Shown piece by piece: positions 560 through 4,315 of a stretch of DNA of 4,315 nucleotides. This stretch comes from a plasmid, in assembly GCF_056746865.1 (NCBI RefSeq), contig NZ_JBWKMP010000008.1; one strand, given 5' to 3'. The notes beneath the pieces are model-generated. The model was not told the origin of the DNA and searched no databases. It saw only the letters and a list, made by a program, of their open reading frames with translations. Within the stretch, counting starts at the first letter, position 1. Each line of letters opens with the position of its first letter. Made by a program: the position numbers and the translations under genes.

Positions 560-754
560 TTATGTTCCTGTTTCACTTTCAGTCTCAAAGCGAACCTGGA
601 TGCTGTTCTGGAGTTCTTCCGCGAGTTCGTGCAGTCGTTCGCACATGGCCGCCTGTTCGTCGGCATCCAGAGCATCCAGTTTTTCAAGCAGTGTCAGGCT
701 CTGGCTTTTGATAAATCGCGCCATATTCAGCGCAGTTTGTTGCTGTTTGTTCAC
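560..754 (-). CDS. rop: Rop/Rom, the RNA I-RNA II pairing modulator protein (64 aa, GTG start)
   Basis: Translation MNKQQQTALNMARFIKSQSLTLLEKLDALDADEQAAMCERLHELAEELQNSIQVRF... aligns by eye with pBR322 Rop (MTKQEKTALNMARFIRSQTLTLLEKLNELDADEQADICESLHDHADELYRSCLARF...). GTG start as in pBR322 rop. GGAG/GGAAG motif just upstream on the - strand. Position and orientation relative to ori match pBR322. Confidence 0.92.
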   Translation of the reverse strand: MNKQQQTALNMARFIKSQSLTLLEKLDALDADEQAAMCERLHELAEELQNSIQVRFETESETGT

Positions 755-1535: not shown

Positions 1536-1564
1536 AATGTTATGTCGTAATGTACGTATATAAT
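1536..1564 (+). promoter_or_regulatory. Candidate sigma70 promoter for the small ORF: consensus -10 TATAAT (1559-1564), weak -35 (ttaatg, 1536-1541)
   Basis: Perfect TATAAT hexamer within gtacgtatataattc. The -35 is weak. Inferred from sequence only. Confidence 0.4.
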
Positions 1565-1650
1565 TCAGGCGAAGATGAGAAAAGATGAATAGATCTGATA
1601 TGAATTACCATGATTACTCATGGACGGCTGTACAAGGAGATAATCCACGA

Positions 1651-1878
1651 ATGACTAAGCTAGATGCCACGCGCTTTAGCCGTCATGAGGGTTATGAGGT
1701 GTTAGATTTGATTAATTCCTTCCAGGCCAAAGGGGGTGGTGCTCTGACGCTAAAATCACAGCAGATTATCGAGTGGATGCTACATGAACGCCTGCCATCC
1801 AATATCCAGGGGCGAGCTCAGGTTAAAGCGTGGGTGGTTGATAACTTCTCGCAAATGAAGGATGGTTATCCATTCTGA
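1651..1878 (+). CDS. Small hypothetical protein (75 aa from ATG 1651; the in-frame ORF extends to ATG 1585, giving 97 aa), function unknown
   Basis: Strong Shine-Dalgarno AAGGAGA (1634-1640) 10 nt before ATG 1651. Clean intrinsic terminator immediately downstream. I do not recognise the family and see no obvious helix-turn-helix signature. The longer 1585 start has a weaker RBS. Confidence 0.55.
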   Translation: MTKLDATRFSRHEGYEVLDLINSFQAKGGGALTLKSQQIIEWMLHERLPSNIQGRAQVKAWVVDNFSQMKDGYPF

Positions 1879-1879
1879 T

Positions 1880-1906
1880 AAAAAGCCCGCTACAGCGGGC
1901 TTTTTC
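1880..1906 (+). terminator. Rho-independent terminator after the small ORF: stem agcccgc / gcgggct, loop taca, T-run; A-run upstream
   Basis: Seen directly: aaaaa-agcccgc-taca-gcgggct-tttt(t), starting 2 nt after the stop codon. Confidence 0.8.
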
Positions 1907-2015
1907 ATGAGCTGTGCTCAATGAGGCATTATGGTAAATTGTTATGGAGTGGGCATGTCTGTATATGATGCCTGGTGGTATGATTTTGTTTGTAACACTG
2001 GAAGGTTGTTGGAAT
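1907..2015 (+). promoter_or_regulatory. Upstream region of the endonuclease gene, containing TTATGGTAAAT (1929-1939; identical to the cer XerD arm, and readable as an extended -10 TGgTAAATT) and RBS GGAAGG (2000-2005)
   Basis: Sequence reading only. The promoter is not experimentally defined. Confidence 0.35.
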
Positions 2016-2939
2016 ATGGATTTAACAAATATTGAATTTATTAATGATGCCGCAATAAATAGGAGGCGTTACTGGACTAATGAAATTGTCAAATTAAGTG
2101 GGCATTTTGTTAATGACTCCAGTAGGGTTGAGGAGGAAATTATTTATGAAGTTTCCAAATCTGGATCTCAGGCTTTATTGGACCACCTTCGATTATGCAC
2201 AGCCATTCCTGAATCATATGAGCATGATTCAAGCGAAGAAAAGTTATATTCAAAGTATACAGACGCATTGATTTCTGAATGTTTTAAGTTTTTTGGTTTG
2301 AATAGCATTGTGTTAACTGAGAGGGCTGATGCGGCAGATGTAGAAGTTGTATGTGATAGTTATTCTTTTGTTGCTGATGCTAAAGTTTTTCGGTTAAGTC
2401 GAACAGCTAAAAATCAGAAAGATTTTAAAGTTCAAGCAATGGATGGTTGGAGGAATACTAAAGATTTCGCCATGGTTGTTTGTCCAATATATCAGCTTCC
2501 AGTTAAATCAAGTCAAATATATCAACAAGCTATTCTTCGCAATGTGTGTGTGTTTACTTATACTCATTTAGCTGTTCTGGTAAAGTATGCTGACATTGTT
2601 GGTAGTGATGTTAGGATATTGTTAGAGGAAATATTCAGATCTGTCATACTCATGAATCCAAGTAAGGATAGTGTGCAGTACTGGACTATGATTAATAGAA
2701 CGATGTTGAATTATGATAAGAGAATAGAAAAACTTTGGATTGATGAGCGAATTGCTACATCAGAGGGTATCTATGTGCTGAAAAAGATGGCAATAGAATA
2801 CCTCTCTTCCGAGAGAGGTAGAATTCTAAGCATGAGCAGAGAAGAGGCTGTAAGAGCTTTGATTAAAATGAATAAAATTGAAAGTAGAATTGAGCAGATT
2901 AAAAAAGTGACAGATAATAATATTCTGTCACTTAAATAA
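2016..2939 (+). CDS. Type II restriction endonuclease, HindIII family (predicted AAGCTT specificity); 307 aa from ATG 2016, with the open frame extending upstream to 1944
   Basis: Translation contains ...SFVADAKVFRLSRTAKNQKDFKVQAMDGWR..., which matches my memory of the HindIII catalytic region (ADAKSFRLSRTAKNQKDFKV, PD-D/ExK active site), plus further collinear similarity (EEKLYSK..., SREEAVRALIK...). Length is close to HindIII (300 aa). Start at 2016 is preferred because the 24 upstream codons look non-native. This would correspond to the EcoVIII-type enzyme if my recollection of pEC156 is right (unverified). Confidence 0.88.
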   Translation: MDLTNIEFINDAAINRRRYWTNEIVKLSGHFVNDSSRVEEEIIYEVSKSGSQALLDHLRLCTAIPESYEHDSSEEKLYSKYTDALISECFKFFGLNSIVLTERADAADVEVVCDSYSFVADAKVFRLSRTAKNQKDFKVQAMDGWRNTKDFAMVVCPIYQLPVKSSQIYQQAILRNVCVFTYTHLAVLVKYADIVGSDVRILLEEIFRSVILMNPSKDSVQYWTMINRTMLNYDKRIEKLWIDERIATSEGIYVLKKMAIEYLSSERGRILSMSREEAVRALIKMNKIESRIEQIKKVTDNNILSLK

Positions 2940-3854
2940 TTATTTGTTTAATCTCTTTATACTGGTCTCTACATATGTAGGGTTTATTTCGAAACCAATA
3001 TAATCCCTACCTAAATCTTTCGCTGCTACCAATGTAGAACCACTGCCACTAAAAGGGTCAATGACTAATTGACCTTTTTGTGTTGTTAATTCTATAAGTG
3101 TTTTCATTAAGGCTACAGGTTTTTGTGTTGGGTGTAATCCACTTTCATTGCTGGAAAATCCAGCTGTAATGACATTTTCAGGTTTGCCATTTCTTGCTAC
3201 AAATGCATCTTGATTATAAGCACCGACACCATGAATAATTGCATTATCTGCAATTGTGCCGCCAATTTTATATGGTTTAGAGAACCATAGTATGGGTTCA
3301 AAGGTTGGTTGTAGATTTCCAACTCGCCATCCATTCCATTTTTCTGCGTTTAATGTATCCCCGCGCCTTTCGTAAACGCAACTCAACCTTTGGGCTCTGT
3401 GAGGGGCTTTTACTCTCATCCATGCAATTATATCGCGAAGATTGAATCCAGCATCTTCCATTGCACATATGCATCGATGAGAAAATCTTCTGCCTGCAAA
3501 AATAATTGCACTGGCACCTGGTTTTAATACTCTGAACCATTCAGTAGCCCATTCTTCACACCATTGCTGATATTCTAATGGTATTTTCTTATCAGCCTCT
3601 GACCATCCATTTATTGGTTTTCCTCTTTTTTTAAAAATAGCACCTGCGTTTTTCTGCGCAGGGCTTGAACCTAGGTATGCGTTATTTGAGTTATTATGTA
3701 GCACATCCCAGTCTTCTGCTCCTATCCCATAAGGGATATCACTGAGTATTAAATGTGCATATTGTGATGGGAGTTTTTTTATTAATGATATCGAGTTACC
3801 ATTGGTAACGGTATTCTTTTTTATTTCATCAGGTAATTGGATCTTGTTTAACAT
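2940..3854 (-). CDS. DNA methyltransferase, beta-class (motif IV near the N-terminus, motif I near the C-terminus), amino-methyltransferase (N6-adenine by analogy to M.HindIII); 304 aa
   Basis: Motifs seen in the translation: LILSDIPYG (motif IV, DPPY-like), HPTQKP, VIDPFSGSGSTLVAA (FxGxG AdoMet-binding motif I). RBS AGGAA upstream of ATG at 3854 on the - strand. Convergent partner of the HindIII-like endonuclease. Confidence 0.9.
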   Translation of the reverse strand: MLNKIQLPDEIKKNTVTNGNSISLIKKLPSQYAHLILSDIPYGIGAEDWDVLHNNSNNAYLGSSPAQKNAGAIFKKRGKPINGWSEADKKIPLEYQQWCEEWATEWFRVLKPGASAIIFAGRRFSHRCICAMEDAGFNLRDIIAWMRVKAPHRAQRLSCVYERRGDTLNAEKWNGWRVGNLQPTFEPILWFSKPYKIGGTIADNAIIHGVGAYNQDAFVARNGKPENVITAGFSSNESGLHPTQKPVALMKTLIELTTQKGQLVIDPFSGSGSTLVAAKDLGRDYIGFEINPTYVETSIKRLNK

Positions 3855-3948: not shown

Positions 3949-4053
3949 AAAGAAAAAACCGCCTTGCAGGGCGGTTTTTTCAAGGTTCAAAGAACTTGCA
4001 GGTTTTTGAACCACGGTAACTGGCTTTGTGGGAGCGCAGTCACCAAAATCTGT
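3949..4053 (-). ncRNA. RNAI: RNA I, the antisense copy-number control RNA (about 105 nt), complementary to the 5' end of RNA II
   Basis: 5' end placed by analogy with pBR322 RNA I (acagtatttggtatctgcgc... corresponds here to the reverse complement of gcgcagtcaccaaaatctgt). 3' end at the shared terminator hairpin. Confidence 0.8.
3953..3980 (-). terminator. RNA I terminator hairpin (aaaaaa-ccgcc-ttgcag-ggcgg-tttttt), which also forms the 5' stem-loop of RNA II
   Basis: Seen directly; equivalent to the pBR322 aaaaaaaccaccgctaccagcggtggtttgttt element. Confidence 0.8.
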
Positions 4054-4057
4054 TCTT

Positions 4058-4092
4058 TCAGTTTAGCCTTAACTGGCAAGAAACTTCAAGAC
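4058..4092 (-). promoter_or_regulatory. RNA I promoter (on the - strand: -35 TTGAAG = + strand 4084-4089; -10 CTAAAC = + strand 4061-4066)
   Basis: Same arrangement and near-identical hexamers to the pBR322 RNA I promoter as I recall it (TTGAAG...17 bp...CTACAC). Confidence 0.6.
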
Positions 4093-4315
4093 CAACTCCC
4101 ATAAAACCGTTACCAGTGGCTGCTGCCAGTGGCGTTAAGGCGTGTCTTACCGGGTTGGACTCAAGACGATAGTTACCGGATAAGGCGCAGCGGTCGGGCT
4201 GAACGGGGGGTTCGTGCACACAGCCCAGCTTGGAGCGAACGACCTACACCGAACTGAGATACCAACAGCGTGAGCTATGAGAAAGCGCCACGCTTCCCGA
4301 AGGGAGAAAGGCGGA

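Follow-up and report, generated by a model that had tools for sequence, protein, structure and literature searches.

Reading frame between cer and ecoVIIIR

The stretch of DNA analysed here, referred to as the window (4,315 nucleotides; contig NZ_JBWKMP010000008.1 of assembly GCF_056746865.1), is a ColE1-type plasmid in full length. It corresponds to pEC156, which naturally carries the EcoVIII restriction-modification (R-M) system, a HindIII isoschizomer. Several 4315-bp plasmids of E. coli and Salmonella are identical or nearly identical to it. Between the recombination site cer of pEC156, described in PMC4743918, and the endonuclease gene ecoVIIIR lies a small open reading frame (ORF), which is the subject of this work. 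The ORF is not mentioned in the pEC156 papers searched for it (PMC4743918, PMC6456624, PMC5573283), and its motif and accessions were likewise absent from the literature searched. The following features are needed for the argument; all positions are those of the window.

560-754, minus strand: rop (Pfam Rop, E = 8e-35)
upstream of cer: F-like and R64-like oriT (origin of transfer) loci, mapped approximately from the coordinates in PMC4743918
1490-1518, plus strand: cer crossover core, with XerC arm GGTGCGCGTAA, spacer TGCGACG and XerD arm TTATGGTAAAT
1537-1564, plus strand: candidate promoter read by eye, with -35 ATGTTA (1537-1542, 3/6), 16-nt spacing and -10 TATAAT (1559-1564, 6/6)
1577-1584, plus strand: A-rich leader GAGAAAAG just 5' of ATG 1585, a weak Shine-Dalgarno (SD) sequence
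1585-1878, plus strand: the ORF under study, ATG to TGA, 97 aa plus stop (from the ORF list)
1634-1653, plus strand: AAGGAGA (1634-1640) with the internal ATG 1651, within conserved coding sequence
1880-1905, plus strand: intrinsic-terminator hairpin of the bidirectional type, AAAAAGCCCGC TACA GCGGGCTTTTT (inverted repeat I19)
1911-1939, plus strand: second cer-core-like site, GCTGTGCTCAA TGAGGCA TTATGGTAAAT; the XerC arm of this right-hand site is degenerate (7/11 against the left one)
2016-2939, plus strand: ecoVIIIR, HindIII-family endonuclease (Pfam RE_HindIII, E = 4e-101)
2940-3854, minus strand: ecoVIIIM, N6-adenine DNA methyltransferase (Pfam N6_N4_Mtase, E = 5e-49)
3950-4051, minus strand: RNAI (Rfam, 85.8 bits)

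The 97-codon ORF had been outlined in a preliminary description of this DNA, and its limits and strand were confirmed. Its length carries no weight, as the strand opposite rop contains a spurious ORF of 129 aa. That the gene is real is argued from conservation and from the ratio of nonsynonymous to synonymous substitution rates (dN/dS). In a word-indexed search covering 5.8 billion proteins, 39 homologs were found; they are 76-119 aa long (mostly 90-105 aa), and the majority align across the whole 97-aa form. Comparisons with four enterobacterial relatives, whose proteins are 76-87% identical, give dN/dS values of 0.04-0.12. Codons 1-22 alone give a dN of 0.05-0.16 against a dS of 0.65-1.17, which indicates purifying selection on this segment too. 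Five residues (Y8, Y11, S12, W13 and D19) are invariant in the homolog alignment and all of them lie upstream of Met23, the residue encoded by ATG 1651. Position 23 itself is Lys in most homologs, with Met kept in the enterobacterial clade. In the relatives, ATG 1585 and the GAGAA core of the leader are conserved, and all intact relatives in the alignment have an open reading frame from 1585 onwards. Judged from these comparisons, the ORF is a real gene under purifying selection, and the product that is conserved and selected is the 97-aa protein starting at ATG 1585. The earlier proposal of a genuinely expressed gene is supported to this extent by the purifying selection, the conserved start codon and a conserved terminator. 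The 75-aa product that was proposed together with it does not correspond to the conserved form, since the invariant residues and the selected codons 1-22 lie outside it. The databases carry three conflicting gene models (97, 92 and 75 aa), all of them termed 'hypothetical'.

The translation signals of pEC156 give a different ranking of the start codons. Calculated duplexes with the anti-SD sequence amount to -8.5 kcal/mol for ATG 1651, -2.9 kcal/mol for ATG 1585 and -0.9 kcal/mol for ATG 1600. The AAGGAGA motif that had been named as the SD sequence of the gene is indeed present, 10 nt before ATG 1651, and shows the strongest pairing, but it is located inside the coding sequence, where it overlaps codons Q17-G18-D19 (GGA GAT = G18 D19). 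It is also specific to pEC156: the closest relative reads AAGGCGA and others read CCCGGCGA or CCTGGCGA. One could assume that the functional product in pEC156 is a 75-aa protein translated from ATG 1651 by means of AAGGAGA, and that the 22 upstream codons are vestigial in this plasmid. This would agree with the strength of the internal SD sequence, with the use of the 75-aa model in some annotations of the Prokaryotic Genome Annotation Pipeline (PGAP) and with the retention of Met23 in the enterobacterial clade. It is difficult to reconcile with the five invariant residues within the first 22, with the modelling of residues 1-10 at a predicted local distance difference test score (pLDDT) of 95, with the purifying selection on the N-terminal 22 residues inside the enterobacterial clade itself and with the uninterrupted frame from 1585 in all intact aligned relatives. 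We therefore consider a vestigial N-terminus quite improbable. Because the SD sequence is weak at 1585 and strong at 1651, a 75-aa isoform may be made in pEC156 in addition to the 97-aa protein.

Transcription signals, EcoVIII and the Xer sites

The terminator hairpin begins 1-2 nt past the stop codon; it is GC-rich and is followed by T5. Its calculated free energy is -18.8 kcal/mol (z = -4.07), and one of 200 shuffled sequences folds as well. A terminator directly after the stop had been noted before, and this observation holds. In the relatives L002, L097 and L096 (labels of this type denote loci of our sample) the stem is conserved and the loop is variable. The hairpin was missed by the consensus scan tool, probably because it can extend through the flanking A/T runs and so consumes the T tail. 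The ORF would be monocistronic and is isolated from ecoVIIIR by its own terminator. In an Rfam scan of the plasmid, RNAI alone was above threshold. Sub-threshold matches at 1798-1908 to rsmX (32.8 bits, gathering threshold 56) and to a Trp leader (25.5 bits, gathering threshold 41) lie over the 3' end of the ORF and were rejected, because the terminator hairpin alone seems to account for them. As to the promoter, the perfect TATAAT pointed out earlier is present at 1559-1564, but the consensus scan of positions 1300-2100 found no sigma-70 promoter, and the accompanying -35 element agrees with the consensus at only 3 of 6 positions. The TATAAT is not kept in the relatives, which read TATCAAT there.

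The position of the ORF directly upstream of ecoVIIIR, in the same orientation and 137 nt apart, had suggested a regulator of R-M establishment. Such a protein would delay or tune the endonuclease when the plasmid enters a naive host. In addition, EcoVIII has no known controller (C) protein. Like the C proteins of type II R-M systems, the ORF product is small and its gene is upstream of and co-oriented with the endonuclease gene. It differs from them in that it carries no HTH_3/XRE domain, in that a terminator precedes ecoVIIIR, so that the two genes are not co-transcribed, in that its homologs are not linked to R-M systems and in its base composition. The ORF has a GC content of 45.6% and a GC content at third codon positions (GC3) of 46%, which resembles the plasmid backbone (cer 49% GC; rop 50% GC, GC3 52%), unlike the low-GC R-M genes (GC 34-38%, GC3 26-28%). 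In a 3855-bp sister plasmid, the block of cer, ORF and terminator is 95.6% identical and diverges just past the terminator into other cargo, which consists of two hypothetical proteins and no R-M system. Close relatives of the ORF (76-98% identical) likewise adjoin other cargo without an R-M system, the more distant homologs are found beside a variety of unrelated systems, and no HindIII-type neighbour was found among the 130 sampled neighbours of the family. A published ecoVIIIR reporter fragment has a working promoter (PMC6456624); by our mapping it spans about 1813-2103 and carries just the last 22 codons of the ORF. The tuning of restriction endonuclease synthesis has been ascribed to a cluster of rare Arg codons (PMC6456624). 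Given the GC content, the intervening terminator, the relatives without R-M and the reporter that is active without the ORF, the gene appears to be independent of EcoVIII and not a controller of the C-protein type. With no helix-turn-helix (HTH) signal in the protein in addition, a role in EcoVIII establishment can be regarded as highly improbable.

In position the gene is associated with cer. All five enterobacterial plasmid relatives have the ATG 77-79 nt past a cer-type XerD arm (77 nt in pEC156). Only two exact copies of the 11-mer TTATGGTAAAT are present in the plasmid, at 1508 and 1929, both on the plus strand, and the cer core and the second site constitute the direct repeat D3, which is 27 nt long and 78% identical, with its copies 421 nt apart. 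These two sites bracket the ORF and its terminator, and the low-GC R-M module starts just beyond the second one. A similar second site follows the terminator in the relative L097. The homology with the 3855-bp sister plasmid runs just past the terminator and stops a few bases short of the second site. The association with Xer sites is not family-wide and is restricted to the enterobacterial plasmid clade. Module exchange at Xer or oriT sites is referred to in PMC8683028 and PMC6764390 as an accepted route of ColE1-plasmid evolution that has been proposed also for R-M plasmids (Tran et al. 2012 and Zakharova et al. 2002, as cited there). As far as the sequence goes, the bracketing fits this known shuffling of ColE1 modules at Xer sites. 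The arrangement is similar to ColE1 Xer-site modules and to the pdif modules of Acinetobacter (PMC7399989), as the ORF and terminator lie between sites of the XerC-spacer-XerD type with identical XerD arms. The sites of pEC156 differ from those of pdif modules in being direct repeats. Inverted sites are usual in pdif modules.

In the cer system, rcd has the same direction of transcription as RNAII and is read from the accessory sequences to the XerCD core (PMC2831885). In pEC156, the plus strand carries cer, RNAII and the ORF and is also the strand expected for Pcer and rcd; RNAI is on the minus strand. Since rcd follows the RNAII direction and RNAI is encoded on the minus strand, the ORF would be co-oriented with the dimer-activated promoter Pcer and located just downstream of it. 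It is the first coding sequence 3' of this promoter (interval 1290-1585), with the spacing kept in the five plasmid relatives. A read-through from Pcer into the ORF that is coupled to the dimer state is purely speculative.

From this arrangement, a cer-linked plasmid function could be derived, in which read-through from Pcer and rcd gives the protein a role in the multimer checkpoint or in Xer recombination at the flanking sites. The constant distance between the XerD arm and the ATG in the five plasmid relatives, the common strand of RNAII, cer, rcd and ORF, and the second core-like site 3' of the gene would all be explained. The constant spacing may, on the other hand, reflect inheritance as one block, and the wider family lacks the Xer-site association and resides in chromosomes, transposons and prophages. 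Published stability work credits cer, EcoVIII and copy-number control and leaves the ORF unmentioned. Moreover, in the 3855-bp lineage GGGGGTGGTG has turned into a G9 run that frameshifts the ORF. This frameshift is common to two independent assemblies (L002 2190-2205, NZ_AP022102.1; L121, NZ_JBWPXN010000006.1) and may represent either a plain pseudogene or a tract that is prone to slippage. Because the frameshifted copy persists in this lineage, the ORF appears to be dispensable for plasmid persistence. The stability factor considered in the preliminary description is unlikely as far as an essential one is meant, and we attach a low probability to a cer-linked function in general.

Protein family and genomic contexts

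In agreement with the preliminary description, which could not assign the product to any family, the pEC156 protein has no Pfam or NCBIfam match at E <= 1. It does, however, match phrog_33929 (PHROGs v4, unknown function) with E = 1.2e-35, residues 1-96 aligning to profile positions 4-100 of 101. This family corresponds to the 'hypothetical protein' cluster WP_250695915.1 and to UniRef A0A8E2PR19. Its members are of the same size as the pEC156 protein and also stand alone, but membership names the protein without explaining its function. The ORF protein also matches the C-terminal half of phrog_32103 (196 aa). When 1.84 billion cluster representatives were searched exhaustively with an HMMER profile, 768 relatives were obtained, among them the query cluster P0001. 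Nearly all of the best-scoring 150 of these 768 representatives are single-domain, stand-alone proteins of 90-100 aa. The family extends over Proteobacteria, Bacteroidota, Campylobacterota, Geobacter and bacteria of the candidate phyla radiation (CPR). Its motifs YSW, D[ND]P, R-x-EGYEVL-x3-N, LP and a Trp in the last helix are all present in the pEC156 protein, as Y11-S12-W13, D19-N20-P21, R33-H-EGYEVL-DLI-N44, L70-P71 and W83. The family is thus catalogued already, in PHROGs and in 'hypothetical protein' clusters, and no study of it was found in the literature.

Besides a homology search, the preliminary description had proposed a structure prediction, and this gave a confident three-helix model of the 97-aa form. 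The AlphaFold2 model (pLDDT 87.6; predicted template modelling score, pTM, 0.81) has helices at residues 36-45, 56-69 and 77-94, connected by loops of 10 and 7 residues, and an N-terminal segment that is modelled as ordered and is rich in aromatic residues. The model has no structural relative in the PDB or among viral structures, and a profile search of PDB sequences reached a best E of 0.2. With a mass of 11.2 kDa and a grand average of hydropathy (GRAVY) of -0.69, the protein is hydrophilic. Its isoelectric point (pI) is 6.8 and those of the family range from 5.1 to 10 with a median of 8.1, which makes it neither an acidic DNA mimic nor a uniformly basic protein. A Pfam search at E <= 10 with 36 diverse members gave no consistent weak signal, and HTH families were matched by at most one of the 36, with E > 0.1.

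Domain fusions that might inform on function were looked for and rejected. P0151, a 313-aa metagenomic protein, is a tandem duplication of the domain with Ala/Lys-rich linkers that resemble histone tails; in P0191 the gene call has apparently merged the domain with a fragment of an integrase, and no informative Pfam domain was present. In a Flavobacterium locus (L093 7792-8384), two neighbouring paralogs of the family are separated by 2 nt. The paralog pair and the tandem protein P0151 give a hint of a paired function.

Genomic contexts were sampled at about 100 loci, and neighbouring genes (three on each side) were clustered for about 80 of them. No conserved partner gene was found by this clustering; the largest cluster consists of five related Flavobacterium loci. 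The 130 immediate neighbours belong to 83 Pfam families, none of which occurs in more than three loci. A type II toxin-antitoxin pair was rejected, as no conserved small partner exists in the about 80 loci and the gene is flanked by cer and a terminator in pEC156. The following contexts were found.

pEC156: EcoVIII R-M system
Cupriavidus megaplasmid pHG1 (L004 3817-15656): Gabija upstream, Avs1abc downstream
L107 (2925-8404): again Gabija, then a gene of unknown function for 324 aa
Pseudoalteromonas plasmid: PARIS-like AriA/AriB
Tn7-like elements at comM: a UvrD/GajB-like helicase, or HipBA with a DUF4238 gene
L104: Type III CBASS (cyclic-oligonucleotide-based anti-phage signalling system) operon
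L099-L103: island with AbiH, SIR2, TIR, GIY-YIG and E2/ThiF/JAB
tightly linked downstream genes: ThsB (E = 8e-61), PDC-S06/AAA_13 (E = 7e-244) and a PDC-S28 helicase (E = 1e-98)
Salmonella ColE1-type plasmid: CcdAB and an S-pyocin/immunity module
Kosakonia integrase island: kinase/PP2C pair
two P2-like prophages: the family gene lies between gene A and the portal/terminase genes (gpA-portal interval)

The gpA-portal interval of P2 is known as a hotspot for anti-phage cargo (Rousset et al. 2022, PMC9122126; bioRxiv 10.64898/2026.02.27.708500). Our data indicate that the family recurs in mobile-element and defence cargo regions. In this respect the family gene is similar to the cargo of defence hotspots such as P2 gpA-portal and P4 psu-int, as it is cargo of unknown function beside defence systems that vary with the locus. 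Such hotspots are defined by the conserved backbone of one element, whereas the family moves among plasmids, Tn7-like elements, integrase islands and prophages, and the likeness is one of genomic context; PADLOC does not include the family. The Gabija genes (GajA, 656 aa; GajB, 633 aa) followed by the family gene are shared by two different elements, pHG1 and L107. Because the same arrangement occurs in both and the downstream genes differ, Gabija and the family gene seem able to travel together.

The family is rare in sequence collections of mobile elements. It was found in about 13 of 72,556 records of sequenced plasmids and in 9 of 5,426 complete E. coli genomes, there always on small plasmids. 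Viral contigs contributed 13 loci in 2.9 million, several of them at the edges of proviruses or within the defence hotspot of P2, and no homolog was present in 50,697 phage genome records (INPHARED, searched with two divergent queries).

Possible role of the protein

Taken together, we favour the explanation that the ORF is an autonomous cargo gene of mobile elements, encoding a 97-aa three-helix protein and independent of EcoVIII; as a whole, this is given a probability of roughly 55%. Translation from ATG 1585 would yield a soluble protein in which the conserved aromatic N-terminal segment is packed against a compact three-helix domain. The protein would belong to a widespread family of stand-alone proteins of about 90-100 aa that have no fixed partner gene. 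The family would occupy the variable cargo regions of small ColE1 plasmids, of a megaplasmid, of Tn7-like transposons and integrase islands, and of P2-like prophages (there in the gpA-portal hotspot), very often beside an anti-phage or toxin system that is a different one each time. In pEC156, the gene would represent backbone-like DNA that is tied to cer and lies outside the low-GC EcoVIII module, between two XerCD-core-like sites. The term unrelated passenger, used in the preliminary description, comes closest among the options considered there, but understates the recurrence of the family beside defence systems.

With regard to function, the protein may act alone as a small binding protein for a conserved component of the cell or of an invader (a protein or small ligand rather than DNA), and so serve as defence-type cargo in conflicts between mobile elements, phages and hosts. 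We consider this plausible, at somewhat less than even odds. DNA binding is not obvious, because the 36 members examined show no HTH or other Pfam signal and their family has a median pI of 8.1 (5.1-10). Further still, and tentatively, the family might be an unrecognised stand-alone conflict module of about 95 aa, either a one-gene factor against phages or mobile elements, or a universal accessory of defence islands. The fold of the family, without a detectable relative among solved or viral structures, would then have spread across phyla by way of defence hotspots and been captured in ColE1 plasmids as an Xer-flanked cassette directly downstream of Pcer. This wider proposal is speculative and rather unlikely as it stands.

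Several observations weigh against the favoured explanation. The start codon ATG 1585 has a poor SD sequence (-2.9 kcal/mol) compared with the strong one at the internal ATG 1651, from which a shorter isoform may also be made, and the scan detected no sigma-70 promoter ahead of the gene. PADLOC-DB v2.0.0 gave no match at E <= 0.01 for the pEC156 protein and two divergent homologs. A model of two copies in tandem, joined by a Gly-Ser linker, reached a pTM of 0.46 with both copies folded and no confident homodimer. The nameable neighbours are disproportionately defence, toxin or mobile-element genes that differ by locus, which is a descriptive tally without a matched background, and ordinary housekeeping genes are among some of the neighbours. 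Finally, the conservation is unusually high and atypical of fast-evolving immune sensors.

The neighbourhoods could also be explained by a promiscuous transcriptional regulator of the adjacent defence or cargo operon, similar to CapW/BrxR or to C proteins and with a new DNA-binding fold. The family gene is often directly upstream of and co-oriented with diverse defence genes, with gaps of 0-50 nt; its product has the typical size of small regulators, and the Ala/Lys-rich linkers of the tandem relative P0151 are histone-like. The loci show no asymmetry between upstream and downstream, as the gene is equally often downstream, convergent or divergent, and in pEC156 and its relatives it is isolated by the terminator. 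The protein itself does not have the features of such a regulator: no HTH, winged HTH or ribbon-helix-helix Pfam signal was obtained for the 36 members, the spacing of the helices (loops of 10 and 7 residues) is unlike that of an HTH, and no dimer was predicted by the tandem model. A regulator of this type is therefore judged unlikely.

An anti-defence protein that neutralises host immunity as the mobile element enters a new cell would likewise be small, stand-alone and borne by mobile elements, and conservation across phyla would suit a conserved host target. The absence of homologs from the phage genome records with both queries argues to the contrary, as does the scarcity in viral contigs, where several of the loci lie at the edge of a provirus or in the defence hotspot of P2. 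Mostly, the family is cargo of chromosomal islands. Relative to the F nic sequence, the ORF presumably lies on the traM-proximal, last-transferred side of the F-like oriT, so that it would not be a leading-region gene. We regard an anti-defence role as improbable and favour autonomous cargo with a defence-type function.

pEC156 serves as an experimental model for the maintenance and mobilisation of R-M plasmids and for the control of endonuclease expression. The conserved gene lies between cer and ecoVIIIR and was probably removed in some of the published cer or R-M deletion derivatives, which could confound the reading of their phenotypes. A conserved protein of fewer than 100 aa with a confident, unmatched fold that is found beside Gabija, Avs, PARIS-like, CBASS, Thoeris and R-M systems and in the P2 hotspot makes the family a cheap candidate for a new defence, counter-defence or accessory function. 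With Xer cores on both sides, the gene offers a concrete and testable case of the movement of small cargo between ColE1 plasmids. At present, the result corrects the gene model of a model plasmid and provides a solid lead for experiments.

Two further annotations of the plasmid deserve comment. PGAP calls a 53-aa 'replication initiation protein' (WGB73051.1, WP_071779772.1) at 4058-4219 on the minus strand. This call sits in the RNAII/RNAI control region. It is probably an annotation artefact, because ColE1 replication requires no plasmid-encoded initiator. The longest endonuclease ORF, of 331 aa, begins at ATG 1944, a start that was adopted in one PGAP annotation of this plasmid. The real start of ecoVIIIR is ATG 2016 (307 aa) rather than 1944, since the codon numbering of PMC6456624 (R16/R17, AGG AGG) fits it. 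An SD sequence, GGAAGG, is located 8-10 nt ahead of ATG 2016 and forms a duplex of -6.2 kcal/mol. About 30 nt before ecoVIIIR, TGGTATGAT at 1976-1984 can be read by eye as an extended -10 element (TGn + TATGAT), below the threshold of the consensus scan. It lies within the published reporter fragment and is a plausible candidate for the natural ecoVIIIR promoter.

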